Below, in pieces: positions 4,830-21,166 of a stretch of DNA of 32,402 nucleotides (the first letter of the stretch is position 1; the number at the start of each line of letters is the position of its first letter). The translations under genes and the position numbers were made by a program. Source of the DNA: a virus (Duplodnaviria; Caudoviricetes). Location: the IMG/VR virus record IMGVR_UViG_3300048835_000060, positions 1-32,402 of that record, one strand, 5' to 3'. The notes below the pieces were generated by a model. It made no database searches, was not told the DNA's origin, and was given only the letters and a program-made list of their open reading frames with translations.

Positions 4830-5359
4830 TCCCGATCCCGGCCGCCGTCGTTCGCTGGCTCGTCGGGCTGCTGGTCTGTGCTGGGCTGCTCACCGCCGCT
4901 TGGTTTCATGGCCGGTCGATAGGCGTCACGTCCGAGCGCGCCGTCTGGACCGAGCGCCAGATCATCGCCGAGCGCGCGGCGCGGCAGACGGAAACCGATC
5001 TTGCCGCGCTGGCCGCGAAGTCGGCAGCCCGGCAGGCGCAGAAGGAGGCGCTGCTCAATGACCAAGCCCAACGACAAACGGCTGCGTGGCGCGCCGCTAT
5101 GGCTCGCTTGCGCGATCAGCGCATCCCTGCTGCTGTCGGCGTGCAGCTCGACGCCGCCGGCGGCCTGTCCGCAGCTCCCGCCGTGGCCGAGCCACCTCGA
5201 GCCGATCCCGATGGTCCCGCACTCGATCAGCTCGTCCGGCTTGCCGACGAGCTCGACACCGTCCGGGAAAACTACCAGCGGTGTGCGGTGAACATCGAAC
5301 GTCTGAGTGCTGCGCGTGACTGGTATAACGAAATCCGCGAAAGGGTCAACGAACCTTGA
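4826..5359 (+). CDS. Rz: Inner-membrane spanin (Rz-like)
   Basis: Single N-terminal TM helix, Ala-rich coiled-coil periplasmic region, C-terminal Cys; directly after the endolysin. Confidence 0.8.
   Translation: MIPIPAAVVRWLVGLLVCAGLLTAAWFHGRSIGVTSERAVWTERQIIAERAARQTETDLAALAAKSAARQAQKEALLNDQAQRQTAAWRAAMARLRDQRIPAAVGVQLDAAGGLSAAPAVAEPPRADPDGPALDQLVRLADELDTVRENYQRCAVNIERLSAARDWYNEIRERVNEP
5058..5291 (+). CDS. Rz1: Outer-membrane spanin lipoprotein embedded in Rz in the +1 frame
   Basis: AAGGAGG RBS at 5042-5048, ATG 5058, lipobox LLSA-C, Pro-rich mature part (CSSTPPAACPQLPPWP); lies fully inside Rz as in lambda. Confidence 0.85.
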   Translation: MTKPNDKRLRGAPLWLACAISASLLLSACSSTPPAACPQLPPWPSHLEPIPMVPHSISSSGLPTSSTPSGKTTSGVR

Positions 5360-5373
5360 CTTGGCCCTCGGTC

Positions 5374-5871
5374 TCAAAGGGTGCTGTATGGGTGCAGTCG
5401 GCGCTTCGCCTCGACGTATGCGGCATGCGCTTCTTCAGGCGTACTGAACACGCCGATATGTTTTCTGCCAACCATCGGGACGTTAATTTCCGCCTTGAAT
5501 TTATCGCGGCATCTAGAAACGCCAAGCAGCCCTGTAAACGAACCCTTAGTGGCAGAGCGCCGATTCTGCTTGTTCTCCGCGTTGGTTATGTCGCGCAGGT
5601 TGTTCCATTTGTTGTTCGCACGATCGCCGTCGATGTGATCGACCTGGTGTTGAGGCCATTCACTGAGCACCCACAAGAAAGCGAGGCGGTGGGCGTAATA
5701 CCGACGACCATGAATGCAGATCTCGATGTACGAGAAGCTGGAAGTGCTGCCTGCAACGCTTCCGACAGGCCTGATTGGTGACAACTGCTGAGCCCATGTG
5801 AAAACCCCGGTGTTGGGGTCATAGTGGAGCAGCTCACGCAATCGCTCTGCGGTAAGATTTTCTTTAGCCAT
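5374..5871 (-). CDS. HNH homing endonuclease with C-terminal AP2-like DNA-binding domain
   Basis: AHRLAF...VDHIDGDRANNKWNNLR HNH motif; GV...FKAEI...HIGVFSTPEEAHAAY AP2 motif. Start MAKENLTAERLRELL at 5871; visibly lower GC than flanks. Confidence 0.9.
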   Translation of the reverse strand: MAKENLTAERLRELLHYDPNTGVFTWAQQLSPIRPVGSVAGSTSSFSYIEICIHGRRYYAHRLAFLWVLSEWPQHQVDHIDGDRANNKWNNLRDITNAENKQNRRSATKGSFTGLLGVSRCRDKFKAEINVPMVGRKHIGVFSTPEEAHAAYVEAKRRLHPYSTL

Positions 5872-5897
5872 GAAGCACCCAGTATGCTGATTGGTCA

Positions 5898-5933
5898 GAG
5901 GCCGCCAAGCATCGCAAGTGCTTTGGCGGCCTC
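5898..5933. promoter_or_regulatory. Strong hairpin in the leader of the HNH-AP2 gene
   Basis: GAGGCCGCCAA (5898-5908) pairs with TTGGCGGCCTC (5923-5933); minus-strand TAAAAT -10-like box at 5937-5942. Confidence 0.55.
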
Positions 5934-5980
5934 GCCATTTTAACGTGCGCAGGTAACTTTTAATACCAATGCACGCAATC

Positions 5981-6058
5981 TGCGCGGCCAACATCAGCCG
6001 ACTGACCGAGGCGCGCGAGTGGTACGACGCGCTAAGGGAGCGCGTCAATGCTCGTTGA
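5981..6058 (+). pseudogene. Orphaned second copy of the Rz 3' end
   Basis: Translates CAANISRLTEAREWYDALRERVNAR*; 15 of 25 residues identical, without gaps, to the Rz C-terminus CAVNIERLSAARDWYNEIRERVNEP* (5282-5359). Confidence 0.85.
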
Positions 6059-6116
6059 GTGGATCATCGACCTCTGGGCCTGGTGCGTCGCGCACCTGGT
6101 CGTCTGGGTGCTCTGA
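6048..6116 (+). CDS. Putative 22-aa Trp-rich hydrophobic peptide
   Basis: AAGGGAG RBS at 6034-6040; MLVEWIIDLWAWCVAHLVVWVL*; overlaps the end of the Rz remnant. Confidence 0.4.
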   Translation: MLVEWIIDLWAWCVAHLVVWVL

Positions 6117-6190
6117 CGCGCCAGATCGGCGCAGGCGGCGCGATCGGCGGGCCGGAGGTATCAGCGGTCGTCCGGGCGGGTGATCGGCGC

Positions 6191-6379
6191 TCAGGCGCCC
6201 GCGTAGGCGTCCGCGAGCAGCGCGTGAGCGCGGCGCAGCCTGCTCACCAGTCTCGACACGCTCGGCGATCCGTCTGGACGAACACGGTAGGGTACTCCCA
6301 TAGCGTCGAGTGCGCGACACTGCGCCGGCCGGCGGGTAACGCCGATCCTCTCGGCGATCTGGTCAGCGGTGAGCAGCAT
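6191..6379 (-). CDS. Excisionase-like protein (DUF4224-type)
   Basis: MLLT..QIAERIG..RRPAQCRALDAMGVPYRVRPDGSPSV matches the DUF4224 pattern; last gene of the leftward operon, where xis normally sits. Confidence 0.65.
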   Translation of the reverse strand: MLLTADQIAERIGVTRRPAQCRALDAMGVPYRVRPDGSPSVSRLVSRLRRAHALLADAYAGA

Positions 6380-6627
6380 TACAGCAACCCATCCTGTACA
6401 GGATTCTGCGCAGGCTTCTTCTTGCGCAGGTCGCGCAGTTTGCGCAGTACATCATTTCTGGTCAGCGTGTCGTCCGAGTGATCGTATGTGTACTCGGCCC
6501 CGTTAAACCGGCAGCCGCCGTAGTGCCGCGCGATAGATAGCTGTCCATGCGAAACGCTCCGGATCTGGTACGGCGTGTCGCGCGGTAGCGATTGGATCGC
6601 GTCGAGTTCTTCGTCGGTGAGCAGCAT
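6379..6627 (-). CDS. Hypothetical protein
   Basis: 82 aa, coupled at both ends, GGAG RBS. Confidence 0.6.
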   Translation of the reverse strand: MLLTDEELDAIQSLPRDTPYQIRSVSHGQLSIARHYGGCRFNGAEYTYDHSDDTLTRNDVLRKLRDLRKKKPAQNPVQDGLL

Positions 6628-6654
6628 CAGCCGCGCTCCGCGATCGTCAGCAGG

Positions 6655-6846
6655 TCAGCCACGCGGACCTTTCTCGCGCAGATAACGCTCCCATCGCTCC
6701 GGGTCTCGGATTGTCGGCCGATTCCTCCACCAGTCACGAAACGTCGTGCCGTCTGGTTCGCTCGGGTTCGCAATCCAGTACAGCGCGAACACGATCGCAA
6801 AAACAGCGGCGATCGAACACGCGACCCATTCGATTCGCTCGATCAT
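6655..6846 (-). CDS. Small single-TM membrane protein
   Basis: GGAGG RBS; hydrophobic segment WVACSIAAVFAIVFALYWIA. Confidence 0.6.
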   Translation of the reverse strand: MIERIEWVACSIAAVFAIVFALYWIANPSEPDGTTFRDWWRNRPTIRDPERWERYLREKGPRG

Positions 6847-7139
6847 GCTTCCTCCGCTGGCCCGAACAAGCTCGGCTTCAGGCAGCTATAGCTCCCGACG
6901 TGCAACTCGACCACTTCGCCAACCGGCAGCGTCTCGACGATGGACTCTCGGATAAGCCACGCGATGTATTCAGCATCTTCGCCAGAGTAGTCTTTGCGAA
7001 GCTCCGTCGGCTTGAACCGTTCCGCCTCTGCTACCGGATCGAAGTCACGCAGCGCGCGCATATGGTCGCGCAGGCAGTAGTCCGAATACTCGCCGTCTGT
7101 GATGGCGATGATCTGTCCCTTGCGTATCGTTCGTGTCAT
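6843..7139 (-). CDS. Hypothetical protein
   Basis: Start MTRTIRKGQII at 7139 after GGAGG; GEYSDY motif. Confidence 0.6.
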   Translation of the reverse strand: MTRTIRKGQIIAITDGEYSDYCLRDHMRALRDFDPVAEAERFKPTELRKDYSGEDAEYIAWLIRESIVETLPVGEVVELHVGSYSCLKPSLFGPAEEA

Positions 7140-7140
7140 G

Positions 7141-7326
7141 TCATTCCTCCGCTGGCCGGGTGAGGCCGCGCCACTGGCAATCGGGACACGACCACCGATA
7201 CAACCACCATATAGTCCGTCTGCCGATCCCATAACCTCGTCGGCATCGCCACTCGTATTTGCTGTTCTCGGTGCCGTTGACCGGCGGTTCAGTTTTCGCG
7301 TTGAACCACGGCGTGCGCTTACTCAT
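7141..7326 (-). CDS. Small Trp/Cys-rich hypothetical protein
   Basis: Start MSKRTPWF at 7326 coupled to the upstream stop; ends WRGLTRPAEE. Confidence 0.55.
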   Translation of the reverse strand: MSKRTPWFNAKTEPPVNGTENSKYEWRCRRGYGIGRRTIWWLYRWSCPDCQWRGLTRPAEE

Positions 7327-7562
7327 TGCGCATCCCTCGGGCGACCCCTTGCGATCCTGATCTTCTCCATTTCTCCGACCATCGACATGCACTGCTCCGC
7401 GAGCGATTCGTGATCGTCTCCTGGCGCGGCAATGCACAGCACGCCGTTGAAGTCGTAGTGAACAGTCACCCCCAGACGGTTCGCAAGGTCAATCGCCTCG
7501 CGTGCCGCAACCGTTACGTCGGTTCCCGGCAGGACTTCAACCGTGATGCTCAGATTACTCAT
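7323..7562 (-). CDS. Hypothetical protein
   Basis: 79 aa, GGGAG RBS, overlaps neighbours, globular composition. Confidence 0.6.
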   Translation of the reverse strand: MSNLSITVEVLPGTDVTVAAREAIDLANRLGVTVHYDFNGVLCIAAPGDDHESLAEQCMSMVGEMEKIRIARGRPRDAQ

Positions 7563-8025
7563 TGCTGGCTCCCATTGCCGCGTCGATCCACGAATCGGCG
7601 TCAGGATTGCTGTAACCGAGGAACACCATCCCTGCCGGAATCACCCACTCCCCTTCTGGATACGTCGCAACGCAGAATTCTCGATTGGCTCTCAGCCACC
7701 GATACCGCCGCGCATCCTGCTCGGCCTCGGCAAGCTGCCGGCGCAGTTCGTCGCGCTCGGCGGTCAGGCGCTCGATTTCCGCCTTCTGCGCCTCGACGTG
7801 CGCGAGGATGGCGGTCATGTTGGCGGGCGAGCAGGCGGCGATGAATGATGCATCGATGCTGTCATGCGACAGTTCGCAATCGCTTGGCGGCACAGCCTCC
7901 CACGCATTAATACGAGCGACGCAATGCACGCCGGCATTTGCTGGCATCGTCACCCACGGCCCCGGCGTCGGCCCCGCTGCCAGCGCGTCCCGCACCTGGG
8001 CGAGCGCGGCTTGTGCGTCAGTCAT
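7555..8025 (-). CDS. Ead/Ea22-like early protein
   Basis: TPGPW...DASFIAACSPA..AIL and coiled coil followed by DARRYRWLR, typical of Ead/Ea22-like proteins. Confidence 0.7.
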   Translation of the reverse strand: MTDAQAALAQVRDALAAGPTPGPWVTMPANAGVHCVARINAWEAVPPSDCELSHDSIDASFIAACSPANMTAILAHVEAQKAEIERLTAERDELRRQLAEAEQDARRYRWLRANREFCVATYPEGEWVIPAGMVFLGYSNPDADSWIDAAMGASNE

Positions 8026-8242
8026 GCTGCCCCCTTGCCTTGAGCATCTCGTCAGCCATCCGGAAGGACGCGGCTGCGATAGCAGCAAAGTCCACTCTGC
8101 TCTCGGGGCCGGCGACTTGCATGGCAGCGAGCAAAATCGGCTGCATCGCCTCCGCCGCGAAGTAGTCGCGCAGGGTCATGCCGCCCGTGTAGTTATGCTG
8201 CCCGTCATGCGGAAATGCAGGCCCGCCGTCATTGATGCTCAT
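8018..8242 (-). CDS. Conserved lambdoid early protein of unknown function
   Basis: DGGPAFP...GMTLRDYFAA.AMQ...ADEMLKAR motif, common in lambdoid early regions. Confidence 0.75.
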   Translation of the reverse strand: MSINDGGPAFPHDGQHNYTGGMTLRDYFAAEAMQPILLAAMQVAGPESRVDFAAIAAASFRMADEMLKARGQHD

Positions 8243-8531
8243 GCCGCCTCCCAATCTCTGCTGCGGCTCGGACGATGGCGCGGCGGGTAGCGGCGAGATC
8301 GTCCTCATCTTGTCGGCCGAACCGCTCCAGCGATCGAAAGTGGTAGAACTCTGCCCCGTTGAACAGATTCAGATTCACTGCCAGCCGCAGCGCGTCGCCG
8401 TCGTCGGTGAGAGGGCTCCATCTACTCAGCACGCCATCGAAATAGGCGTCGTTGCCGACCCACTCCCCGCGCAACTCTCCGCAGGCAATGGCCGCCAGCC
8501 GTAGCAGTTCGCGGTCGTCGTCACTCAGCAT
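8229..8531 (-). CDS. Conserved phage early protein (NinX/ABA-sandwich-like)
   Basis: WSPLTDDGDALRLAV and ATRRAIVRAAAEIG motifs. Confidence 0.65.
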   Translation of the reverse strand: MLSDDDRELLRLAAIACGELRGEWVGNDAYFDGVLSRWSPLTDDGDALRLAVNLNLFNGAEFYHFRSLERFGRQDEDDLAATRRAIVRAAAEIGRRHEHQ

Positions 8532-9345
8532 CGCTGCCTCCGATTCTCGGCATGACCGACAGGTCAACAAATCGCGGATCGCCGAACGTCGGAAACTTAA
8601 GCGTCCACGCTCGTCGCCCGTGCGGCTTTACAACGACGCCATCGCGGAGCTTGAGTCCTGTGGCATCGACAATACGACGAATCAGATGCTCCGCCTCGCA
8701 AGCCCTCTCGGCCCACGGAACGGCGATCAGGTCAAGGTCGCGCGTGAATGAACCGTGCAGGCCGATGGCGTATCCCTCCTCCCACGCGAGCTTTCGGGCG
8801 ATGGTGTAGACCCGGCCATAATCGGGGTCGATGATCCCGTAGGGAGCGCCGGTCGGCTCGGCATCGTTTCGATAGCTATCCGCCATTCCCTTGTAGACAC
8901 CCAAGTCGTCGCCACTTGCCGGCGCTGGCTTCGGCTCGGTCTGCGGAACCGGCCACCCTTTCGTTCCGTCGGCGGCGTCCCTGTAATGGCAAGCGTCGCC
9001 GTCCTGACATGGACACGTAGGATCGTTGCCTATACACGGCTCGGCCTGCTGCGCGGCTGGCGCAGCGGCAACCATGGCGCTATACCAGTTCGCGTGGTCC
9101 GCGTCAGGAGAGCATCCCGGTGCGTGCCAGTCATAGCCGTCCATCATGCCGACCGCGCTCAGCATCTCCGGCGTCGGCTCCACCGGCACCAGCTTCCATC
9201 CGTGCGGCACGGCTGGCGTTGGCTGCGCATCGACCAGTGCGCGCAGGTAGTCGGCGGCGCGAATCACGTCTACCGTGGCGAGGTCATAGTGCGGCACAGA
9301 CAGCGCATCGGCCAGCGCGCGGAGTTCGTTTGCGTCCATCGTCAT
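8521..9345 (-). CDS. Mosaic early protein: Eaa-like segment plus C-terminal nucleotidyltransferase-like domain
   Basis: VPHGWKLVPVEPTPEML module; Cys cluster CIGNDPTCPCQDGDAC; C-terminal LHGSFTRDLDLIAVPW...FVDLSV. Confidence 0.6.
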   Translation of the reverse strand: MTMDANELRALADALSVPHYDLATVDVIRAADYLRALVDAQPTPAVPHGWKLVPVEPTPEMLSAVGMMDGYDWHAPGCSPDADHANWYSAMVAAAPAAQQAEPCIGNDPTCPCQDGDACHYRDAADGTKGWPVPQTEPKPAPASGDDLGVYKGMADSYRNDAEPTGAPYGIIDPDYGRVYTIARKLAWEEGYAIGLHGSFTRDLDLIAVPWAERACEAEHLIRRIVDATGLKLRDGVVVKPHGRRAWTLKFPTFGDPRFVDLSVMPRIGGSDAE

Positions 9346-9592
9346 TTCTCCTGATCCTCGTGCACAAGGGATTCGGGATAGCACGCTTGCGCCGTCGTGC
9401 CGTCCCATCCAAGACGAGAGACAGCAGCATCGAACCGCACGAACACCGTGCTTCCGTCCGCAGAAACACTTGACACCTTGCCGCGCTCGCAGTCGCTATG
9501 TGTGCGATCACCGTAAGCGTGCATCGGCACGTAAACGACTCGATCGCCTGGGGCGAACGGACTCATGCGTTGCGGCATCGTCATTTCTCCTG
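9337..9592. repeat. 17-bp exact direct repeat flanking gene 9342-9584
   Basis: CATCGTCATTTCTCCTG at 9337-9353 and 9576-9592 (minus strand CAGGAGAAATGACGATG = RBS + stop + start). Confidence 0.9.
9342..9584 (-). CDS. Small SH3/KOW-like beta protein
   Basis: FAPGDRVVYVP...ERGKVSSV...VFVRFD pattern. Confidence 0.6.
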   Translation of the reverse strand: MTMPQRMSPFAPGDRVVYVPMHAYGDRTHSDCERGKVSSVSADGSTVFVRFDAAVSRLGWDGTTAQACYPESLVHEDQEK

Positions 9593-10171
9593 CGGCACGG
9601 TGGCCGGCACATCAAACTGCTCATAGATCAGCGCGTCGAAATTGTCCCGTGCGGCGTACCATGCGGCGACCCGTGCGGCGGCCCCTGCGGCGACCCGTGC
9701 GGCGGCCCATGCGGCGGCCCGTGCGGCGGCCCATGCGGCGTCCCATGCGGCGTCCCGTGCGGCGTCCCGTGCGGCGGCCCATGCGGCGGCCCGTGCGGCG
9801 GCCCTGATCGACTCGTCGCCGGTCATCAGGTAATCGAGCACAACATCCGGCGGGTCGTCGTACAGGTGGATCACCGACAGCGCCTGCATCCGGGCGTAAT
9901 AGCGCAGCGTCTCGGTGATATCTGCGCGCTGAATGATCCGGCGGCGACGGCACACGAACTTGTCGTGATCCTCGGTCACAATGTCGTCGCACTCGACACG
10001 GCACAGAACTGGACCCGGCGCGTATTCCAGCGCATGAGCCGGCCTACGGCTGGCGTGCAGGCCGGTCAAGCAAATCTTGACCGGGCCGGTATGAACGAGC
10101 CATTCGCCGTCCGGCGGGATCGGCCTGCCGTCGCGCAGGGTTGACCCGACAAAATGCCACGCTTCGATCAT
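9581..10171 (-). CDS. Phage protein with Ala-rich tetrapeptide repeats
   Basis: N-terminal C..GLHAS...AL.YA domain followed by AARA/AAWA/AARD repeats. Confidence 0.75.
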   Translation of the reverse strand: MIEAWHFVGSTLRDGRPIPPDGEWLVHTGPVKICLTGLHASRRPAHALEYAPGPVLCRVECDDIVTEDHDKFVCRRRRIIQRADITETLRYYARMQALSVIHLYDDPPDVVLDYLMTGDESIRAAARAAAWAAARDAARDAAWDAAWAAARAAAWAAARVAAGAAARVAAWYAARDNFDALIYEQFDVPATVPQEK

Positions 10172-10197
10172 CTATTTCTCCTGCGGCACGGTGGCCG
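9583..10197. repeat. 24-bp exact direct repeat flanking gene 9581-10171
   Basis: ATTTCTCCTGCGGCACGGTGGCCG at 9583-9606 and 10174-10197; both adjacent genes end ATVPQEK. Confidence 0.92.
9646..9803. repeat. 12-bp coding tandem repeat (about 13 units)
   Basis: Unit consensus CC(G/A)TGCGGCG(G/T/A)C, encoding Ala-Ala-(Arg/Trp)-(Ala/Asp/Val) on the minus strand. Confidence 0.9.
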
Positions 10198-11934: not shown

Positions 11935-12263
11935 GTCGACCTCCGTTGGATGAGCTTCCCGCCCGCGAGCGACGGAACGTGCGAGTGATCGCTGCCGGGC
12001 CGACGTACCACAGCCGGCGAGCGGTACGGCTGCATCGGCGGCAGCGCCGACAGGCTCGGGATCGCCAGCCGCCCGGCGCGGGTCAGCCGGTAGCGGTTCC
12101 ACTTGAGCGCGACGAGGCCCTCGGCGATGAGCAGCTCGGTCGTGCGCACGATGAGCGACGTCGGGTGCGCACTCATGCAGCGCGCCAGCTCGGCGCTGTT
12201 GCGCGGTGCGACCTGCAGGGCGCGCAGGACGGTGCCGCGAAGGGGATGGGCGTCGGTGGTCAT
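11931..12263 (-). CDS. Winged-helix-like hypothetical protein
   Basis: SAELAR...LIAEGLV...YRLTRAG wHTH pattern. Confidence 0.55.
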   Translation of the reverse strand: MTTDAHPLRGTVLRALQVAPRNSAELARCMSAHPTSLIVRTTELLIAEGLVALKWNRYRLTRAGRLAIPSLSALPPMQPYRSPAVVRRPGSDHSHVPSLAGGKLIQRRST

Positions 12264-12976
12264 CCGAACAGCCCCGGTTCGCGCTGCCGCTGCACTTCCT
12301 GCAGCGTCGCCAGCACCGCGATCATGCAGTCCAGTTCGCGGAGCGCCTGTTCGCGATTCATGAGCCGATCTTCAGCATATTGAGCGAAGCCGCGCTTCGT
12401 GCGAACCGACCGGAGCAAACTGCGAATCACGAGCGACTGTCTGGCGATGGTGATTGTCTTCTTGTCTCGATACCGACGATGCGCGTCGCGGCTGCACTGC
12501 GCGCAAACGACCCATCCACGCTTCTTGAGCGCCCCGAACTCGCGGCGGTCGTGCCCGTTACGGCAGTGCGTCTGCTTCAATGCGCGCGCGATGTTGCTGG
12601 CTCCGGCTCCTCCTCTTTTGGTGTTCTCCGCAACGGTGACTGGCTCCAGGTGCCACGGGTTGACGCAGGCTCGATTGCGGCAAAGATGATCCAAGACCAA
12701 TCCGTCTGGAATTTCCCCTCTGTGCAGGATGTAACTGACGCGATGTGCCTGTGCCGGATATTTTGTCCCGGCCCGTTTGCTGCCCGTGCAAATCTGACCG
12801 TATCCGGTCGGCCTGAGAGAACCGAGCCATAGCCAGCACCCTGTCATCGGCTCTGGTTCGTAGAGCGACTGCAGGCGCTCCAATGTTCCGTCCGTGAGGT
12901 CCAAGCGGCGCGTCAAGACCATAGCGGCGCCTCGGCGAGGCACCGCGATCTGGTCGGCGAGGGCGACGGCGCTCAT
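12260..12976 (-). CDS. HNH endonuclease fused in frame within a small phage gene
   Basis: GCWLW.G...GYG...AHRVSY...LDHLCRNRACVNPWHLEPVT..EN and THCRNGH..C..C zinc motif; internal ATG at 12922; lower-GC core. Confidence 0.85.
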   Translation of the reverse strand: MSAVALADQIAVPRRGAAMVLTRRLDLTDGTLERLQSLYEPEPMTGCWLWLGSLRPTGYGQICTGSKRAGTKYPAQAHRVSYILHRGEIPDGLVLDHLCRNRACVNPWHLEPVTVAENTKRGGAGASNIARALKQTHCRNGHDRREFGALKKRGWVVCAQCSRDAHRRYRDKKTITIARQSLVIRSLLRSVRTKRGFAQYAEDRLMNREQALRELDCMIAVLATLQEVQRQREPGLFG

Positions 12977-13578
12977 GCCTCTTCCGCCTCTTCTTCTTCG
13001 TCCTCCGTCTCGTCGTCGTCGAACTCGCCCTCGGACGGTTCCGCCTCGTCGTCGTCCTCGAAGAGCGGCGGCTCGTAGTCGGCCGAGGGCGGATCGAAGC
13101 TGATCTCGACCGACTGGCGCTGCAGGTCATACAGGCGCGCGATCTGCTCGCCCGACGGATAGCCGCGCACCGTGAAGACCATCTCGACCTGGCCGCCGTC
13201 GACGAACGCGAGCGTGAACGCCTCGATCTTCGTATCGTCGATCACGATGTCCGCGCGCCCGCTCACCCCGAAGTGCACGGTCAGCGTGCCGCCGACCAGG
13301 CGTTGCGACCACTTGATCGAGCCGAGCCGGTCTCCCGAGAACTTCGGCACCAGCAACTGGTCCGGATGCGCGGCCTGGTCGGCGAGGTCTGCGCCTTCCT
13401 CGGGCTCTGCGCGCTTGAAGAACGAGTCGCGCAGCAGCGGGTGGAAGTGCGCGAGCACGCCGTTGTCGATGCGCATCTCGAACTTCAGGTCGGCCACCGG
13501 CACGCGCTTGTTGCCGTGCTTCTCGGTGGTCGTGTTCATGTGCGCGAAGAGGGCGTTGCGGCGGTCGAATTCGAGCAT
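12973..13578 (-). CDS. Conserved phage beta-rich protein with a strongly acidic C-terminal tail
   Basis: AGGAG RBS; N..TEKHG...ADLKF motif; tail FEDDDEAEPSEGEFDDDETEDEEEEAEEA. Confidence 0.75.
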   Translation of the reverse strand: MLEFDRRNALFAHMNTTTEKHGNKRVPVADLKFEMRIDNGVLAHFHPLLRDSFFKRAEPEEGADLADQAAHPDQLLVPKFSGDRLGSIKWSQRLVGGTLTVHFGVSGRADIVIDDTKIEAFTLAFVDGGQVEMVFTVRGYPSGEQIARLYDLQRQSVEISFDPPSADYEPPLFEDDDEAEPSEGEFDDDETEDEEEEAEEA

Positions 13579-13842: not shown

Positions 13843-14508
13843 TCACTCCGCGCGAGTCAGTTGCTTGCGGCGCCGGCCGCCGTTATTTCCGACCGGGGTT
13901 GTCAGCGCTCGATCGACGGACCATCCGCGCCGCAGCCGATCGGAAAGCGTGAATACGCTGATGCCGATTTCCGCCGCCCAGTCCGTCATCACCATCGTGC
14001 GACCGTTGAACGTCAAGGTGTGGTTGTCCGTGCGGTTCCTCGCTTGCTCGGCCGTGGTCGCCCAACGGCAGTTGCCCGGTTCGTACCCGCGCGCGTTGTC
14101 GATCCGGTCGATCGTCGCGCCATCCGGGCGCTCACCCATATCGGCGAGGAAATTCTCGAACGATTCGCGCCACCGATCGCATACGCCGATGCCGTTCGCT
14201 CCGTATCTGTCGTAGCTCGCCGAATTCGCGTCGTAGCACCTGCGGACCATCCCGAGCCACACTCGATGCGTCGGAGTGCTCGTCATGCCGTGCACTCGCT
14301 TGCGTCGAGATGACAGCTCGGCGCTCAGGCATCCGCACGAGGACGCCCGGCCACTGCTGACGCTGTACGGGTCGACGACCTTGACCGCCCCGCAAGCGCA
14401 TTGAACGCGGAGCATGGTTCTCGTCTTCGCGCCGCGCCTTGCTACCCGGTCGGCGCCGACGACCGTGAGGCGGCCGTAGGCGCGACCTTGCATCTGCTGA
14501 ACGAGCAT
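13843..14508 (-). CDS. HNH-type homing endonuclease
   Basis: YGRLTV...CACG...SCGC, W..M..RC...YG..GI.VC.RW..FENF..DMG, IDRIDN..GY.PGNCRWAT...Q..N, with a C-terminal HTH. Confidence 0.88.
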   Translation of the reverse strand: MLVQQMQGRAYGRLTVVGADRVARRGAKTRTMLRVQCACGAVKVVDPYSVSSGRASSCGCLSAELSSRRKRVHGMTSTPTHRVWLGMVRRCYDANSASYDRYGANGIGVCDRWRESFENFLADMGERPDGATIDRIDNARGYEPGNCRWATTAEQARNRTDNHTLTFNGRTMVMTDWAAEIGISVFTLSDRLRRGWSVDRALTTPVGNNGGRRRKQLTRAE

Positions 14509-14512: not shown

Positions 14513-15628
14513 CTACTCCTTCGCCTTCAGCAGTTTCCGCAGACGACCAAACTCATTCGAGCAATCGGGCTGCTGGTCGTCCGGCAGGTACTGGATCAGG
14601 TCGCCGAGGGCGTCGAGCGCGTCGAGGTCGGCGGACTTGTGGATCTTGTCCACCAGCTCGGCGTAGGTGATGCTCGGGGCGTCGGCAGGGGGCTCGGTGG
14701 CGGCGTCGAGGCCGGCGGACTGGTCGGCGTCCATATCGGCGTCCTGCGCCGGCGCCGCGCCGCGCCTGGCCGTACGCGCGCGGATCGCGTCCTTCGCCTT
14801 GTCGGCGGCGGTCTTGCCCGCTGGCGGCGGCTCGTCGCCGTCGACCGGGTCGAACCACTCGGCCGGCGTGCTCATGCCGTCGCGCAGGCTCGCGTAGATC
14901 TTCTTCAGCGCCACGACCTGCGCGGGCTGGATCGCGTCGAGCCGGCGCTGGATGCGTGCCTCGATCTGCTCGCGCGTCACGCCGTACGCCGAGAATGCCT
15001 CGAGCATCTTGTGCATCGCGTCCGGCGAGGTGTCGGCCTTCGCCTTCATCGTCGCCTCGCACTGCTTCACCGCGGCCTCGGTGACGTCCCCAGGGATCAC
15101 CGCGAGGATGCAGGCCCGCAGGCGGCGAGAGCCCTGGTTGGCGACCATCTCGTACACGTCGCGCGGATCCTCCAGGCGCGTCACGCCGCGCTTCGTGTGC
15201 CGCACGTGCGGAACGTGAAAGGTCACCTCGCGACGCGTGTTCGTCTCGACGTCCCATGCGAACGCCTGCACGGTGCTGCCGCCGTTGCTCTGCTCGAGCT
15301 CGCGGATGCCGAACTGGAAATTGCCCCACTGCTGCGCCATCGCCTCGGCCAGCCGGATCGACGGGCCCGAGACGTCCGAGCCGCCGCGGCTGTACTGGTA
15401 GATCGCGCTGTCGGCCAGCGTCGGGCGCGTGCAGGCATTCAGGATCCGATCCATCGCGGCGATCGGGTCGCGCGGGTTCATGCGGGCGATCACCATCGCG
15501 GCCTGCACTTCGGCGATCGCGCGCTGCTGGTCGGATTGTGCGAGCGCGCCGCCGCCCGGGCGGGCAGCGATCGGCGCGTCGCCGAACGGGTTGGCGGAGC
15601 GGGTTGCGACGTCGTTCATGTCGGTCAT
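14513..15628 (-). CDS. Putative single-strand annealing / recombination protein
   Basis: Directly downstream of the YqaJ exonuclease; GPSIRLAE...QWGN and RRLRACIL..IP motifs; start MTDMND at 15628 after AAGGA. Confidence 0.65.
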   Translation of the reverse strand: MTDMNDVATRSANPFGDAPIAARPGGGALAQSDQQRAIAEVQAAMVIARMNPRDPIAAMDRILNACTRPTLADSAIYQYSRGGSDVSGPSIRLAEAMAQQWGNFQFGIRELEQSNGGSTVQAFAWDVETNTRREVTFHVPHVRHTKRGVTRLEDPRDVYEMVANQGSRRLRACILAVIPGDVTEAAVKQCEATMKAKADTSPDAMHKMLEAFSAYGVTREQIEARIQRRLDAIQPAQVVALKKIYASLRDGMSTPAEWFDPVDGDEPPPAGKTAADKAKDAIRARTARRGAAPAQDADMDADQSAGLDAATEPPADAPSITYAELVDKIHKSADLDALDALGDLIQYLPDDQQPDCSNEFGRLRKLLKAKE

Positions 15629-15654: not shown

Positions 15655-16572
15655 TCAGGCTGCCTTGACGAGGAACCGCCGCGACGGCTCCCCGGCCTTG
15701 ACGAAGCGCTCGTAGACGTCGGGCAGCGCGGCCTTGAGCGCGGCAGAATCGAGGCGCCTGGCCGGCGCCGCGGCCTTCCAGGTGGCGAGCGTCTTGCCGG
15801 TCGGGTCGGTGAGCGTGTCGGCCTCGCCCAGCGCGCCCATGACGACGGCGCGCGCCTCTTCCTCGGCCGCGTCGAGCGCCTCGCGCTCGGCCTTGATCGT
15901 GCGCAGCCGCGCGACGGCTCGTTCGACGTCCGCCGATGCGACGACGCTGGCCGACCTGCTCGCGCGCCCGTAGCGGGCCTGCATGTCGGCGTAGCTCACC
16001 GGCTCGGGCGGCTCGCCGCGCTGCACGCGCGACCAGAATTCGGCCTCGGCCTCGATCAGCATCTCCTGCAGCTCGCGGTCCTCGGGCACCTCGTAGATGC
16101 GGAAGTCCGACCCGCCGATCAGCACCGCCACGTCGGCCACGGCGATGCTGGTCACGGCCATGTAGTGCTGCACCTGCAGCAGGTAGATCTGCGGCACCTG
16201 GTCGGTCCCGGGCTCGCCCCAGCCCTCGGCGGTGCGCGCGGTCTTGGCCTCGAAGAGGCGCAGATCCGCCTGCCCCTCGGCGCCGGCGAAGCCGTCGATG
16301 TTGGCGACCATGAAGTCGCGCTCGGGGTGGCGCAGCATGCCGGTGGGCACGCGCACCTCGCGCCCGGTCTCGTCGGCGTACGCCTGACGCACGACCGGCT
16401 CGAGGTAGCGGCCCCAGCGCATCGCCTCGTTGTCGGGTTGCGACGCGACCTCGCCGCGCTTTTCCTGGAACACCTGCAGCGGCGTGCGCCACTTCGACAG
16501 TCCGAGGATCGCGGCCACGTCGCTGCCGCCGATCCCGGTTTTCCGTTCCTCGAGCCACTGTTCTCGGTTCAT
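15655..16572 (-). CDS. YqaJ-like viral recombinase exonuclease
   Basis: WLEERKTGIGGSDVAAILGLSKW.TP, G..LEP, ANIDG, EAKT, QVQHYM motifs; start MNREQW at 16572. Confidence 0.93.
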   Translation of the reverse strand: MNREQWLEERKTGIGGSDVAAILGLSKWRTPLQVFQEKRGEVASQPDNEAMRWGRYLEPVVRQAYADETGREVRVPTGMLRHPERDFMVANIDGFAGAEGQADLRLFEAKTARTAEGWGEPGTDQVPQIYLLQVQHYMAVTSIAVADVAVLIGGSDFRIYEVPEDRELQEMLIEAEAEFWSRVQRGEPPEPVSYADMQARYGRASRSASVVASADVERAVARLRTIKAEREALDAAEEEARAVVMGALGEADTLTDPTGKTLATWKAAAPARRLDSAALKAALPDVYERFVKAGEPSRRFLVKAA

Positions 16573-16742
16573 GCTGCTCTCCTGAGCTTGCGCGCCGCCC
16601 GCTGCGGCTGCTGCCCGAACATCGGCCGGATCGCGAGCCCGCGCGGATGCCGGCGGGTCAGGTCGGCCACGCGGGCGAGCAGCTCGCGGTAGGCGTCGTG
16701 CGAGGCGCGCATGGCGAGGATCTCGTTGAGGCGGTCTTTCAT
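16569..16742 (-). CDS. Small hypothetical protein (57 aa, not in ORF track)
   Basis: MKDRLNEILAMRASHDAYRELLARVADL...; stop overlaps the YqaJ start. Confidence 0.5.
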   Translation of the reverse strand: MKDRLNEILAMRASHDAYRELLARVADLTRRHPRGLAIRPMFGQQPQRAARKLRRAA

Positions 16743-16745
16743 GGC

Positions 16746-16982
16746 TCAATCCATCCGTGCGAGAAGCGCCGCGAGCTGCGGCCACACCTGATTCGGCCGT
16801 CCGTCCAGCCAGTCGAGCAGCGACACCGCGCCGCCCACCACGAACGCGAGCAGCAGCAGGAACGCGCAGCCGCAGACGGCGAGCGCCAGCAAGTCGGCGA
16901 AGCGGGCCCGGTGCATGGCGAGGTCGGCCTGGCGGGACGCGCGCATCGCGGCGCCCTCCTGGCGCAGGTAGGCGGGCCGCAT
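16746..16982 (-). CDS. Small membrane protein
   Basis: MRPAYLRQ... with TM segment LLALAVCGCAFLLLLAFVVGGAV; TGATG coupling. Confidence 0.55.
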   Translation of the reverse strand: MRPAYLRQEGAAMRASRQADLAMHRARFADLLALAVCGCAFLLLLAFVVGGAVSLLDWLDGRPNQVWPQLAALLARMD

Positions 16983-17287
16983 CACGCCGCTTCCCACGCG
17001 ACGTCGCGCTCGCGCTGCCACGTCAGCTCGGCCATCTCGCGCACGTGCGTCAGCGCGGTGCACACGCGCCCCGGCGGGTGCAGGCTGTCGAGCAGCTCGG
17101 ACAGGTCCGGCGTCTCGTACTCGCCGACGAGCATCGACACGCGCACGTCGAGCCATTCGGCCGGCTCGGCGTCGTGGCAGCGTTCCGGCGGTCCGTAGGT
17201 CCGCGCCGGGACGGCCGGCGAGAACGCGCCGACAACACGCCACGATTGGCCCAGTGCCTCGAAGGTCACGTCGATGTGGCGGATCAT
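16982..17287 (-). CDS. Hypothetical protein
   Basis: AAGGAG RBS; YGPPE.C..AEPAE motif recalled from phage early proteins. Confidence 0.65.
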   Translation of the reverse strand: MIRHIDVTFEALGQSWRVVGAFSPAVPARTYGPPERCHDAEPAEWLDVRVSMLVGEYETPDLSELLDSLHPPGRVCTALTHVREMAELTWQRERDVAWEAA

Positions 17288-17547
17288 GCTGCTTGCTCCT
17301 TCGTGGTCTCGGCGACGTCGGCGGCCGTGGCCTCGGCGACGTCGGCGGCCGCGATCAGTTGCGCAGCAACGGCTCGGGCCTTGGCGGCGTCGAATTCCAG
17401 CGAGAGGTAGATGTGCCCGCGCCGAACGCTGAAATCCACATTCCGGCCGTCCGTGCGAACCACGGTGTAGTTGCCCGCTTCTTGGCCGGAAGCCATCACC
17501 TCGTAGGCGTATGCATTGCTGCCGGTGGATTGAAAGTCGTGGCTCAT
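17284..17547 (-). CDS. Hypothetical protein
   Basis: GGAGG RBS; ARAVAAQLIAAADVAE helix. Confidence 0.6.
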   Translation of the reverse strand: MSHDFQSTGSNAYAYEVMASGQEAGNYTVVRTDGRNVDFSVRRGHIYLSLEFDAAKARAVAAQLIAAADVAEATAADVAETTKEQAA

Positions 17548-17864
17548 GCCAGCAGTCCTCCCAGCTTAAGCACGCGCGTCGCGCGCTCGATCACCTGATC
17601 GTCGGCCGGCGTTCGCGCAGCGCGACCGGCGAGCTTGAGCGTCTCCGCGAGGGCTTCGCGCAGCAGGCGGTTCGTGCGGGCGAGCTGCTCGGCATCCTTC
17701 TGCAGCAGGTTGGCGCGGAAGCCGTCGGCGGCGGCCTGCGGGCTGTCGGCGAGCCTGGGGAGATCGGCCAGCGCGATGCGCTCGTCGGCGTGGATCGGCG
17801 CGGTCGGGCCGGCGTGGCCAATGGGCTGGCCGGCGTTGGCGTAGCGGGTGAGGGCGGCGGACAT
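17544..17864 (-). CDS. First gene of the leftward operon, hypothetical
   Basis: GGAG RBS; helical/coiled-coil composition; no HTH or S24 peptidase motif seen. Confidence 0.6.
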   Translation of the reverse strand: MSAALTRYANAGQPIGHAGPTAPIHADERIALADLPRLADSPQAAADGFRANLLQKDAEQLARTNRLLREALAETLKLAGRAARTPADDQVIERATRVLKLGGLLA

Positions 17865-17897
17865 CTGCGGCTCCGATCGTTGGTGACGATGGAGCCA

Positions 17898-17927
17898 AGT
17901 CTACGCGCAGTTGACCGCACAAGTCAA
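17898..17927 (-). promoter_or_regulatory. Leftward sigma70-type promoter (pL-like)
   Basis: Minus strand TTGACT (17927-17922) - 18 nt - TAGACT (17903-17898). Confidence 0.7.
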
Positions 17928-17993
17928 CAGGCAGTAGACGCCATGATTGAGGGTCTACGGTGGGTTGACATTCATAGTCTACGCACAGTAGAC
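17899..17993. promoter_or_regulatory. Four 17-bp palindromic operators GTC(T/A)AC-N5-GT(T/A)GAC
   Basis: Sites at 17899-17915, 17923-17939, 17953-17969 and 17977-17993; 24-bp period within each pair. Confidence 0.88.
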
Positions 17994-17994
17994 T
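17965..17994 (+). promoter_or_regulatory. Rightward sigma70-type promoter (pR-like)
   Basis: TTGACA (17965-17970) - 18 nt - TAGACT (17989-17994). Confidence 0.75.
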
Positions 17995-18001
17995 TGCCGG
18001 C

Positions 18002-18271
18002 ATGAGCACCGAACTGATCGAACTGCGCGCATACGCAGAGGCAAACGGGGGCATCACAGAGGTGGCCTCAACGCTCGGGGTCACGAAGGGCGTGTTCTGG
18101 GCGTGGTTGAACCGGGGGCAGGTCCCGGCAGATCAATGCCCGGCCGTCGAGCGCGCGACCGGCGTGCGCCGATGGGCTCTGCGCCCCGACGACTGGTTCC
18201 GCATCTGGCCGGAACTGATGGTCGAGCCCGGCGCCCCCGCAGTCCCCGCTACCACGCCAGAGCCCTCGTAG
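18002..18271 (+). CDS. cro: Cro-like (YdaS-type) HTH regulator
   Basis: GGITEVASTLGVT...W..RGQVPADQCPAVERATGV....LRPDDW..IWPEL, the YdaS/Cro pattern; first gene after pR. Confidence 0.85.
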   Translation: MSTELIELRAYAEANGGITEVASTLGVTKGVFWAWLNRGQVPADQCPAVERATGVRRWALRPDDWFRIWPELMVEPGAPAVPATTPEPS

Positions 18272-18282
18272 GGCGTCACGCG

Positions 18283-18387
18283 ATGACGCCAGAGCAGGTG
18301 GAGTTGCGCCGCATGGAAGTCGCGGGCGAGATCGAGATCGAGCGGGGCAGCGGCAAGCGGCCCGACCGAGTGCGGAGGGCGCGGTGA
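18283..18387 (+). CDS. Small hypothetical protein (34 aa)
   Basis: MTPEQVELRRME...; GTGA overlap with the next gene. Confidence 0.35.
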   Translation: MTPEQVELRRMEVAGEIEIERGSGKRPDRVRRAR

Positions 18388-18656
18388 GCGATCGCCGCCT
18401 CAAGCCCGAAATCCGCGATCGGTGGATCGTGGACATGCTGGCGTATCGCGGCCCGATGGACGTGGCCGAAATCGGCCATCAACTCGGTCTGTCGGTGCGC
18501 CACATGCAGGGCGTCGTGCGCGAGCTTCGCAAGGCCGGCGCAATCGAGATAGCGCCGGGTCGGCGTGGCCTTGGGCGGCGCGGCAGGCTGCCAACGTTGT
18601 ACCGGGTCGTAGAGGACCGGCAGTCGCGGTACGCGCAGGACAGGGTGGCGCGGTGA
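18384..18656 (+). CDS. Winged-helix DNA-binding protein
   Basis: GPMDVAEIGHQLGLS...VVRELRKAGAI...GR.PTLYR; GGAGG RBS. Confidence 0.7.
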   Translation: MSDRRLKPEIRDRWIVDMLAYRGPMDVAEIGHQLGLSVRHMQGVVRELRKAGAIEIAPGRRGLGRRGRLPTLYRVVEDRQSRYAQDRVAR

Positions 18657-18847
18657 AGGTCGCCGAGCTTTCGCCGCTTGAGCGCCATCTGCGCGTCGTG
18701 CGCACGATCGGCGCGCACCGGCCGGCGGCGCCGGATTACGTCGCCTACGGGCGCATGAAGGCCGAACTGGTGCGCGACTTCCCCGACCTTGAGCCGGCCG
18801 AGTACAGCCGGGCAGTGCGCGAGATCGCGCGAGCGACGGGGGTGTGA
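18653..18847 (+). CDS. Hypothetical protein
   Basis: GTG 18653 coupled to the upstream stop; Y..MKA.L...P...EY..AVR.IA...GV pattern. Confidence 0.55.
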   Translation: MKVAELSPLERHLRVVRTIGAHRPAAPDYVAYGRMKAELVRDFPDLEPAEYSRAVREIARATGV

Positions 18848-18942
18848 TGCGCTTCATCCGTCACTGGATCAGGCTGCGCTCGTTCTCGGCGGCGCGATGG
18901 CTGCGCGCCTACGAACGGGCCGAGCGGAGACATTGGCAATGA
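18847..18942 (+). CDS. Small Arg/Trp-rich peptide (31 aa, not in ORF track)
   Basis: MRFIRHWIRLRSFSAARWLRAYERAERRHWQ*; TGATG and ATGA overlaps at its two ends. Confidence 0.45.
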   Translation: MRFIRHWIRLRSFSAARWLRAYERAERRHWQ

Positions 18943-19400
18943 ACGCGCGCAACGTCTTGGACCGATTCAACGAGAAGGTCCATCGATCGACCGAGTGCTG
19001 GACATGGATAGCACGCCGCACGCCGCAGGGTTACGGAAGGTTCAGCTTGCGCGGCAAGAATCGTCTTGCTCATCGAGTGGCATTTGAACTGTTCGTGCGC
19101 CACCTGGACGACGGGGAGCAGGTTCTTCATAGATGCGATAACCCATCATGCGTTCGCCCGGACCACCTTTGGATCGGAGACAACGCGGCCAATGTGGCAG
19201 ATAAGGTTCGTAAAGGGCGCGCGAAGGGGTTTGTAGGCGAGAGCAATCCACGGGCTCTGCTACGGAACAAGGACATCCCAGTAATCAGGAGGCTTGCGGC
19301 AAGCGGCCAGATGCAAAAACTGATCGCCGCGCAATTCAACGTCCGCCCACACGTCGTTGGTGAGATTGTGCGCGGGAAGAATTGGAGGAAAGTCACTTGA
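18939..19400 (+). CDS. HNH homing endonuclease with C-terminal HTH
   Basis: ECWTW...GYG...AHRVAF...VLHRCDNPSCVRPDHL..G...N..D; GESNP.A.L; lower GC; ATG 18939 after GGAGA. Confidence 0.9.
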   Translation: MNARNVLDRFNEKVHRSTECWTWIARRTPQGYGRFSLRGKNRLAHRVAFELFVRHLDDGEQVLHRCDNPSCVRPDHLWIGDNAANVADKVRKGRAKGFVGESNPRALLRNKDIPVIRRLAASGQMQKLIAAQFNVRPHVVGEIVRGKNWRKVT

Positions 19401-21166
19401 ACGCCCGCGAGTTGGCCGATCGCCTCGCCGAGAACGCCGCGGACGTAGCCGCCATGCTGCTGCCGGCCGGCAAGCGGCACGGGCAGGAGTGGAAGGCGGG
19501 GTCGGTCACGGGCGAGGCCGGCGGATCGCTGTCGGTGCGCATCACTGGATCGAAGCGCGGCGTCTGGAAGGACTTCGCTACGGGCGAGGGCGGCGACCTG
19601 CTCGACCTGTTCGCGGCCCGCCGCGGCTGCTCGATCGCCGAGGCCATGCGGGAAGCGGCGGCGTACCTGGGCGTGTCGCTGGACGCGCCGATCAAGCCGC
19701 AGCGCACTTACTCGCGGCCCGCGAAGCCAGACGGCAGCCGGCCGCGCTCGCGCGTCGCTGCATGGCTCGCGTCGCGCGGCTTGACCGAGCAGACGATTGC
19801 CGAGTTTCGGCTGGCCGGAAACCCGGACGATACCGCCGTCCTGATGCCGTACCTGCGCGACGGCGAGCTCGTCAACGTCAAGACCCGCCTTCTCGCCGAG
19901 AAGAAGATGTGGCAGGCGAAGGACTCGGAGCCGTGCCTGTTCGGCTGGCATCTGGTCGATCCGAAGGCGCGCAGCATCTGCATCACCGAGGGCGAAATCG
20001 ACGCCATGACGCTGCATCAGGTCGGCATCCCGGCCATGAGCGTCAATCAGGGCGCCGGAAACCATCAGTGGATCGACTCGGATTGGGAGCGCTTGCAGCG
20101 CTTCTCCGACATCGTGTTGTGCTACGACGACGACGACGCCGGCAGGAAGGGCGCGCGCGAGGTCGCCAACCGGCTCGGGCTGGATCGCTGCCGGGTGTGC
20201 AGGTTCCCGACGAAGGACGCGAACGAGTTCCTGTTGGCCGGCGCCAACGCGGATGACTTCGCCTTCCACGTCCGCGAGGCGCGGCCGATCGACCCGGATG
20301 AACTGGTATCGGCCTCGATCTTCGTCGACGAGGTAATCGCCGACCTGCACACGCTGGCCGATGCGCCAGTCGATCCGGCGCTCTACGTCGGCATGGATCA
20401 CGAGTGGTTCCGGTTTCGGCCCGGCGAGGTGTCGGTATGGACCGGGTACAACGGCCACGGGAAGTCGCAGTTTCTCGGTCAGGCCATGCTCGGCCTGATG
20501 CGCAACGACGAACGCGTGCTGATCTTCTCGGGCGAGATGTTGCCGAAGAAGATCATGTCGCGCCTGACGCGCCAGGCGGCCGGCTGCGGCGATCCGACGA
20601 TCCCGTACATCCGCCAGGTCAATCGCTGGTTCGATGATCGCCTGTGGCTGTACCGGCACGTCGGGCAGGCCGACAGCACGCGGCTGCTCGAGGTGTTCGC
20701 CTACGGCGCCAGGCGGTACGGCATCCGGCACTTCGTCGTCGACTCGCTGATGATGCTGGCCGACGTGCCCGAGGAAGGCAAGGGCGCCTTCGAGGCGCAG
20801 CGGCAGTTCATGTCGCGCGTGACGGCCTTCGCCAAGCAGTTCGCCGCGCACGTCAACGTCGTGGCTCACCCGCGCAAGGCGGCCGACGAAAAGTCCGGGC
20901 CAGGAAAGCTCGACGTCTCAGGCTCCGGGAAGATCACGAACATGGCCGACAACGTGTTCAGCGTGTGGGCCAGGTTGCGCGAGGAAACCGAGGCGGACGA
21001 CGGCTCGCCGGACGCGAAGGTCGAGCTGCTCAAGCAGAGAAACGGCGAGGCGCAGCACCGGGCCATGTACCTGTGGTTCGAGCCGCGCAGTCTCCAATAC
21101 TGCATCACGAACAAGCGCCGAGCGGTGCAGTACATGCCGGCCGAGCAAGCGGAGCCTGTGCGGTGA
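19397..21166 (+). CDS. Bifunctional DNA primase-helicase (TOPRIM + SF4 helicase, T7 gp4/Twinkle-like)
   Basis: ITEGEIDAM and YDDDDAG TOPRIM motifs; Walker A TGYNGHGKS, FVVDSL, VAHPRK, SGSGKI; TTG start 19397 after GGAGG. Confidence 0.92.
   Translation: MNARELADRLAENAADVAAMLLPAGKRHGQEWKAGSVTGEAGGSLSVRITGSKRGVWKDFATGEGGDLLDLFAARRGCSIAEAMREAAAYLGVSLDAPIKPQRTYSRPAKPDGSRPRSRVAAWLASRGLTEQTIAEFRLAGNPDDTAVLMPYLRDGELVNVKTRLLAEKKMWQAKDSEPCLFGWHLVDPKARSICITEGEIDAMTLHQVGIPAMSVNQGAGNHQWIDSDWERLQRFSDIVLCYDDDDAGRKGAREVANRLGLDRCRVCRFPTKDANEFLLAGANADDFAFHVREARPIDPDELVSASIFVDEVIADLHTLADAPVDPALYVGMDHEWFRFRPGEVSVWTGYNGHGKSQFLGQAMLGLMRNDERVLIFSGEMLPKKIMSRLTRQAAGCGDPTIPYIRQVNRWFDDRLWLYRHVGQADSTRLLEVFAYGARRYGIRHFVVDSLMMLADVPEEGKGAFEAQRQFMSRVTAFAKQFAAHVNVVAHPRKAADEKSGPGKLDVSGSGKITNMADNVFSVWARLREETEADDGSPDAKVELLKQRNGEAQHRAMYLWFEPRSLQYCITNKRRAVQYMPAEQAEPVR

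Follow-up and report, generated by a model that had tools for sequence, protein, structure and literature searches.

How can a nuclease gene that lies in neither an intron nor an intein enter the coding sequence of a phage and leave the entered gene in one piece? The question is raised by the virus record IMGVR_UViG_3300048835_000060 (Duplodnaviria; Caudoviricetes), whose entire 32,402 nucleotides (nt; 32.4 kb), here termed the window, have about 67% GC and carry lysis, recombination, replication, packaging and head genes. Besides a packaging HNH at 23502-23816, five HNH-type genes are recognized there by Pfam and PHROGs, as the first-pass annotation, made from the letters alone, had counted them; its further claim, that unrelated HNH subfamilies coexist within the one genome, agrees with the best PHROG families, which differ among the five (phrog_99, 826, 374, 59/826 and 26577/1035). 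All five sit at gene termini and are absent from the same sites in related phages. Judged from sequence, they are probably intron-less homing cassettes, each consisting of a nuclease gene together with a foreign copy of the end that it interrupts.

Layout of the five sites

The host end is swapped at four sites, and at the fifth, a primase gene, the start is captured; at three sites the old end is still present, either next to the nuclease gene or within it. Two copies of the host terminus flank the nuclease at an Rz-like spanin gene, a putative recombinase gene and a small gene, with four codons being duplicated at the primase and none at a head gene. The Rz, recombinase, primase and head open reading frames (ORFs) are all full length against relatives, none being split, and cognate sites without the HNH exist in related phages for each of them and, in the form of unfused proteins, for the small gene. 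The HNH or nuclease domains lie outside introns and inteins, as in free-standing phage homing endonucleases (Pfam, Rfam, PHROGs), the search of the window for introns or other RNAs having given 0 Rfam matches at gathering score, and no intein family being among its Pfam matches.

Comparisons were made with loci from a viral scan and a metagenome scan (L numbers), related proteins (P numbers) and sequencing runs (X numbers), the last being contigs from four runs (X1, X5, X6, X8) out of 24 listed. Close relatives are present in wastewater, biofilm and activated-sludge assemblies, in long pieces with few differences in the 4 runs compared. For pairing within the window, each terminus was scored against other window positions, with the next-best score as yardstick of chance. 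For recoding, synonymous differences at the HNH-proximal end were set against those in the gene body, with HNH-less relatives compared together as control. In Rz, the recombinase and the head gene, synonymous divergence gathers at the end next to the HNH, and it does not do so between HNH-less relatives. The displaced copy is closer than the attached one to empty relatives for Rz (3/3) and, at the protein level, for the small-gene start; for the recombinase this holds at the protein level (5/7) and in the stop codon, 36 nt being ambiguous. The layouts, the empty alleles, the Rz and recombinase boundaries and the excess synonymous divergence at three ends are matters of observation. The five cases are unequal, one being demonstrated, two supported, one partial and one overstated.

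The Rz-like spanin gene and HNH1

4826..5273, plus strand: native body of the Rz-like spanin gene (ORF 4826-5359), after a GH108 lysozyme gene; weak match to phrog_1327, E 4e-4
5058..5291, plus strand: embedded +1-frame ORF for an Rz1-like lipoprotein
5274..5359, plus strand: replacement 3' end of Rz, about 28 codons, the left part of a 699-bp element, 5274-5972
5374..5871, minus strand: HNH1, 165 amino acids (aa), HNH_3 / phrog_99, antisense to the lysis genes
5898..5933, minus strand: strong hairpin within the leader of HNH1 (folding 5860-5975 gives z -3.7, with 0/200 shuffles)
5973..6058, plus strand: displaced native Rz 3' end (scar), matching the ends of HNH-less relatives

The last 26 codons of Rz recur beyond HNH1 (5282-5359 against 5981-6058) with the same residue or stop at 16/26 positions and identity at 50/78 nt, and with a pair score of 86 against a next-best 33 among 64,650 window positions the duplicated Rz C-terminus that the first-pass annotation had pointed out is real. 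The viral scan yielded three Rz loci, L001 being the same phage and L002 and L003 lacking the HNH; a third HNH-less relative, L367, is among the metagenome matches listed. With L002/L003 the Rz body shares 88-90% of its nt, and their ends resemble the scar (60/69 and 57/69 nt) more than the attached end (48/69 and 45/69). L367 matches the scar at 55/57 nt and the attached end at 37/57, and downstream then continues at 69/70. Synonymous differences in the attached end are in excess of those in the body, both against L003 (11/17 vs 14/118, p 6e-6) and against L002 (9/18 vs 12/132, p 8e-5), with no terminal excess when relative is compared with relative (p 0.84). In an X6 contig 5259 and 5973 stand 14 letters apart, in exact colinearity, which delimits the element as 5274-5972, 699 bp, the dinucleotide AC being common to its two edges. 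The expectation from the earlier reading that an empty allele equals the upstream gene plus the scar is thus borne out in 3/3 independent HNH-less relatives and at the contig joint, and the Rz end has been replaced by the HNH1 element. That the scar is near-identical to a living allele fits the model proposed for yeast WHO elements (see below), in which it would be renewed at each homing and serve as a homology arm.

The swapped end also shortens the embedded ORF by 5 residues relative to HNH-less relatives. This ORF, which has no family match, is presumably Rz1, given its position and a lipobox motif. HNH1 itself weakly matches the HNH homing endonuclease of PDB entry 1u3e (E 0.022, with the DH...N motif aligned), and no sigma-70 promoter consensus was found for it. 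Past the DNA shared behind Rz, L002 (520-1838) and L003 presumably have a tRNA-like stretch, followed in L002 by what its motifs suggest to be an integrase-like ORF. At 6059-6379 of the window there is no integrase-like ORF, a DUF4224 gene coming directly, and the phage may therefore have lost its integration module.

The putative recombinase and HNH3

14513..14564, minus strand: replacement 3' end of the putative recombinase, 52 nt (gene 14513-15571; phrog_3657, unknown function)
13843..14508, minus strand: HNH3, 221 aa, phrog_374, E 2e-61
13843..13878, minus strand: HNH3 tail, read as the old recombinase end with its stop codon; GRRRKQL motif

The label recombinase is taken only from the position after a YqaJ-family gene, no named family being matched in Pfam or PHROGs. 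HNH3 has no Pfam match and no meaningful PDB match, and carries DR in place of the DH found in the other HNHs. The pairing of recombinase C-termini proposed at first pass (14513-14548 with 13843-13878; 7/12 codons, 19/36 nt) is at chance level from the window alone, scoring 24 against a next-best 22, and gains substance only once relatives are added. GRRRKQLVAK(D/E) ends 5/7 proteins sharing the recombinase's C-terminal module (2/7 end like the attached copy), and among 68 HNH3-family tails, a family in which basic tails are common, that of the window is the best fit to the relatives' recombinase end (35 vs 21). In contigs of X1 and X8 (2 of the 4 runs, from two studies) 45 other letters separate 14565 from 13849, while those of X5 and X6 also lose their match at 14565. 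As 45 + 7 = 52 nt, the empty X1/X8 allele is colinear and ends on the last seven bases of HNH3, stop included.

Against L121, the attached 52 nt have synonymous differences at 8/13 as compared to 51/257 in the body (p 0.002); against L120, p is 0.035 (control 0.83). Over the first seven codons, L121 is nearer to the HNH3 tail (17/21) than to the attached end (14/21). Replacement of the recombinase end with HNH3 is supported and the predicted empty allele is recovered in outline, from contigs and relatives, the nucleotide comparison of the end being ambiguous over 36 nt. Separately, the last ~68 residues of the putative recombinase (14513-14716) are a module common to otherwise different proteins (P0001-P0007), including Bet and RecT (PF03837) types, and in another locus an HNH4-family gene (L099:3520-4020) follows a recombinase homologue.

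The small gene fused with HNH2

12945..12976, minus strand: first 11 codons, native, of a small gene for 65 aa, with which the HNH2 fusion ORF now begins
12449..12889, minus strand: nuclease part of HNH2, residues 30-176 of the 238-aa ORF 12260-12976; phrog_826, E 5e-41; HNH_3
12326..12457, minus strand: diverged second copy of the first ~43 residues of the small gene, in frame behind HNH2
12260..12325, minus strand: closing 21 codons of the small gene, native, with the residue of P0010 at 21/21 positions

The fourth HNH had been described as fused in frame inside a small gene (12260-12976), and it is; the fusion ORF also holds a duplicated small-gene start, absent from that description. The small gene is defined by eight proteins of 65-66 aa in which it stands unfused. 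Residues 1-19 of the fusion are identical to P0010 at 14/19, X1 and X8 contigs match the window down to 12945, and the native last 21 codons are 78% identical in nt to L368. The second copy aligns with P0010 in register over a 21-residue block (4/21 identical, shuffle p 0.00025), has no stop or start between it and the nuclease at its beginning, and has a GC content at third codon positions (GC3) of 0.70, which is HNH-like, the native parts having 0.84-0.86. These features support a further duplicate, with the old start kept and a diverged second copy behind the nuclease, and the expected composition of the empty allele is recovered in outline. In a side observation, an X1 contig joins 12977 to 13615, from which the gene at 12973-13578 is absent in some relatives.

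The head gene and HNH5

30964..31036, plus strand: Gp80/phrog_240 head gene, its final 24 codons, recoded and without a scar
31036..31704, plus strand: HNH5, 222 aa, phrog_26577 and phrog_1035, its start overlapping the head gene stop

A fifth HNH had been said to follow a 3' end with atypical codons, and for the last 24 codons this was confirmed: they are 61% identical in nt to L124 and L127 (p 0.0015 and 0.004; control 0.90). No displaced head gene end was found by within-window pairing and a scar search, the best candidate reaching 20/30 nt. In L124 (2020-2290) and L125 an ORF of about 90 aa after the head gene starts like HNH5, with cysteine pairs, and has no nuclease domain; it is possibly a decayed element. 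L124 and L126 have, in addition, a mid-gene patch at head codons 29-52 that is synonymous and of low GC3 (0.52-0.54), possibly the footprint of another nuclease.

The primase and HNH4

18939..19400, plus strand: HNH4, 153 aa; it begins with the start codon and first 4 codons that formerly belonged to the primase
19397..19456, plus strand: present start (TTG) of the primase-helicase, not significantly recoded

The primase is a case of start capture with little recoding. The pair at 18939 and 19397 scores 34, the next-best in the window 26. The start of the HNH-less L004 primase shares 14 nt (four codons, MNAR) with the HNH4 start; hence, of the duplicated primase N-terminus initially proposed, the first 4 codons are host-derived and the 13-codon pairing was overstated. 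As a 13-codon duplicate it was rejected, the residues beyond the first 4 codons following the N-terminal pattern of the HNH4 family. The HNH4 stop overlaps the new primase start, and the last codons of HNH4 would presumably supply the new ribosome site. Against L004 the present start is identical at 48/60 nt and the body at 204/240, with recoding p values of 0.34 and 0.17. The simple prediction for the empty allele fails here, HNH-less relatives matching the supposedly new start about as well as they match the gene body. Resistance, if any, may be simply the interruption of a site spanning the start. HNH4 has no PDB match.

An HNH4-like gene abuts the primase start in 5/80 primase loci, of which 4 are distinct, the other 75/80 being without. 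Start capture recurs in 3 other distinct loci (L015, L056/L060 and L058). The HNH start of L058 agrees with HNH-less primases in the DNA before the gene and in its start (22/25 plus 14 nt), as does that of L056 (23/25 plus 6 nt); in both the HNH stop overlaps the new primase start, which in L056 is diverged (54/60 vs 237/240 nt, p 0.003). As a separate matter, distant HNH genes follow the primase gene in L049, L051 and L057, and with L099 these show that the same gene neighbourhoods, recombinase homologue and primase, attract different HNHs.

A proposed route of end replacement

In a mixed infection, the nuclease would nick or cut the native allele within or beside its terminal 15-30 codons. 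Repair would copy the cassette between two homology arms, one being the gene body and the other the scar of the donor or its downstream DNA. The foreign end would complete the recipient's gene, and its spelling would let it escape cutting. The recipient's own end might then persist as an untranslated scar (Rz), be lost (head gene) or be taken up in frame by the nuclease ORF, as with the recombinase end and the starts of the small gene and the primase. Cleavage, resistance and homing are presumed here from the nuclease families, and the foreign origin of the new ends is likewise conjectural. The divergence of the attached end, earlier termed 'recoded', is better taken for import from a diverged allele, since HNH-less L120 and P0007 carry an attached-like recombinase end. 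Lower, nuclease-like GC3, together with this one protein variant without an HNH, makes the new ends look imported and not purpose-rewritten.

A broader version, in which end replacement is a main route of many intron-less HNH families into phage coding sequence, at 5' and 3' ends and even in overlapping genes, with scars and recoded patches predicting cut sites for the many phage HNH nucleases still uncharacterised and with the termini of lysis, recombination, replication and head proteins continually rewritten, is a tentative extension that would more readily be doubted than accepted.

Competing explanations

Several observations weigh against homing by end replacement. Diverged patches lie away from any HNH, at head codons 29-52 (L124/L126) and recombinase codons 82-141; the zinc-finger-like stump of L124/L125 stands after an unrecoded head gene end, a situation that neither reading fits cleanly. 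The primase start in the window is not recoded (p 0.34, 0.17), and that of L062 is unrecoded as well, at 59/60 nt to HNH-less L057. At the recombinase, the 45 letters of the empty X1/X8 alleles are known by length alone, the last 36 nt of L121 are about as close to the attached end (24/36) as to the HNH3 tail (23/36), and HNH-less L120 and P0007 have an attached-like protein end. Finally, T4-type free-standing nucleases are reported to cut far from their own gene (PMC2988022), so that scars need not mark cut sites. Some of these points are what ordinary phage mosaicism would give, with an HNH arriving on a diverged segment by a one-off crossover near a gene end, the duplicate being a by-product kept for the sake of a whole gene and bearing no relation to a cut site; it would account for the patches unlinked to HNHs in the same genes, for the HNH-less allele that resembles the attached recombinase end at the protein level and for the rarity of scars among other HNH loci. 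It is nevertheless unlikely, as all five HNHs stand at a terminus with a swap or capture, the Rz and recombinase boundaries fit the empty allele with exact colinearity, the HNH4 family occupies the primase start in 4 other distinct loci, and a present-day relative carries almost the same sequence as the Rz scar, as expected if homing renews the scar.

Homing of the T4 type, with active nucleases cutting at distant sites and with the swapped ends being co-converted passengers or relics of first insertion that confer no resistance, has the published behaviour of the seg and mob genes behind it (PMC2988022), as well as the unrecoded primase starts beside HNH4 relatives. Yet the divergence is limited to the 17-29 codons next to the HNH, with a sharp edge, and on the window's side no long diverged tracts reach deeper into the genes, which makes this alternative decidedly improbable. 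That the paired ends are chance resemblance or an assembly chimera is scarcely credible. Chance does explain codons 5-13 of the primase pair, and within the window alone the recombinase and primase pairs are near its level, but the same filled sequence is found at 100% in independent records (L001, L122) and empty alleles confirm Rz, recombinase and small gene; for Rz, L002, L003, L367 and the X6 joint refute it. Replacement of gene ends by homing cassettes thus stays the preferred account of the five sites.

How general is the layout?

A stop-anchored survey comprised 195 tests on 126 non-redundant HNH loci, 5 being the window's own, with flanks shorter than 250 nt left out. Seven tests were at the lowest p where 3.2 were expected, 2/7 being from the window, and of the five remaining candidates three (L365, L311, L281) were inspected. 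L365 is credible, with an Rz-like layout in which the last six codons recur in different spelling beyond the HNH (720-1600); its HNH, of the HNH3 family, is antisense and converges on a large gene. To judge by its pattern, this large gene is presumably that for a terminase large subunit, and no relative of it that could represent the empty allele was found. In L311 the last codons and the stop of the upstream gene are repeated exactly, over 15 nt, on the two sides of the HNH (1501-2028), a duplication without recoding that the related locus L357 does not have. The L281 candidate was not credible on inspection.

One further recoded scar and one exact duplicate among 121 other HNH loci do not establish a universal rule, and the generality claimed in the earlier reading finds weak support in that single recoded scar. 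An unanchored six-frame comparison of flanks in 48 non-redundant HNH1-family loci brought out only the window's own copy (L202), other high scores being low-complexity shadow frames that were equally present in 54 control loci. The drop in GC3 at gene ends beside HNHs is slightly larger than in controls (20 vs 461, p 0.02), with drops of at least 0.2 not being enriched (2/20 vs 62/461). A start-capture survey (1/90) missed the known primase cases, and its count carries no weight. Short, decayed and 5' scars escape such surveys, which bound long fresh scars only and not the mechanism.

Relation to known systems

The same layout is described at four Glomus mitochondrial genes (atp6, atp9, cox2, nad3) in PMC3630166, which cites Allomyces macrogynus atp6. 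In these mORF gene hybrids, as here, a nuclease gene lies between a foreign terminus, protein-similar and nucleotide-diverged, and the native one, which has been displaced and is closer to that of the empty relative, and no intron is needed. The differences are that here the DNA is of a phage and the nucleases are HNH rather than LAGLIDADG or GIY-YIG; that the ends are shorter (17-44 codons), in 5' and 3' forms, with one nuclease antisense; and that old ends are absorbed into the nuclease ORF and one swap alters two overlapping genes. Related partial duplications are reported from fungal mitochondria (PMC7487136, PMC8393795). For the yeast WHO elements at FBA1, allele-specific cleavage was shown and 3'-end replacement proposed (PMC7282813). 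They too home without splicing by replacing a gene's 3' end, the unit being a nuclease with a resistant end, and the old end is left downstream as a proposed second homology arm, the same layout as here. WHO proteins, in contrast, are intein-zinc-finger fusions, with ~400-bp fragments and one main target gene, as against five HNH families at five genes recognized here from sequence alone. With HNH nucleases and a phage host, the present cassettes would work like mORF hybrids and WHO elements and be members of neither.

Among phages, intergenic, intron-less homing or dispersed HNH genes are known (PMC2988022, PMC12724721, PMC10448857, PMC2248197). T4 seg and mob genes and Skunavirus HNHs, like those here, are outside introns, present or absent at fixed sites and often overlap the starts and stops of neighbours (PMC2988022, PMC12724721, PMC10448857), with resistance arising by donor sequence replacing the cut site. 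They differ in that they are described as lying between genes, with cut sites far off; T4-type free-standing nucleases are reported to cut at a remove of hundreds to thousands of bp (PMC2988022). No duplicated or displaced termini are described for them in the accessible text. Nearer in position are mobE (Aeh1 nrdA) and mobA (T4 gene 39/60), gene-splitting insertions with new extensions (PMC2988022, 10.1101/2022.08.31.505936), in which also an HNH gene is inside a coding region without an intron and host function is kept. Those split the host protein in two, whereas here the host gene is in one piece and the small gene is fused, not split. No phage account of displaced gene termini was found in the literature searched, whose coverage mostly lay outside subscription papers and supplements. 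What is new is the end-replacement layout in a phage, with HNH nucleases and natural empty alleles documenting it, its kind being already known from yeasts and fungal mitochondria.

Implications

Hardly any free-standing HNH gene of a phage has a known target. If a swapped end marks the cut site, comparison of filled and empty alleles would give a candidate target of 50-90 bp per nuclease, and this genome would offer five at once, with natural empty alleles available. Homing by end replacement would, if true, also account for the abrupt divergence of phage genes at their ends, for unusual N- and C-terminal tails of HNH proteins and for fusions that are annotated wrongly, and a homing route hitherto documented in yeasts and fungal mitochondria would then reach to phages as well.

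Elsewhere in the window, the gene at 9581-10171 has a low-complexity Ala/Trp/Arg repeat (AAW-type units) near its end.

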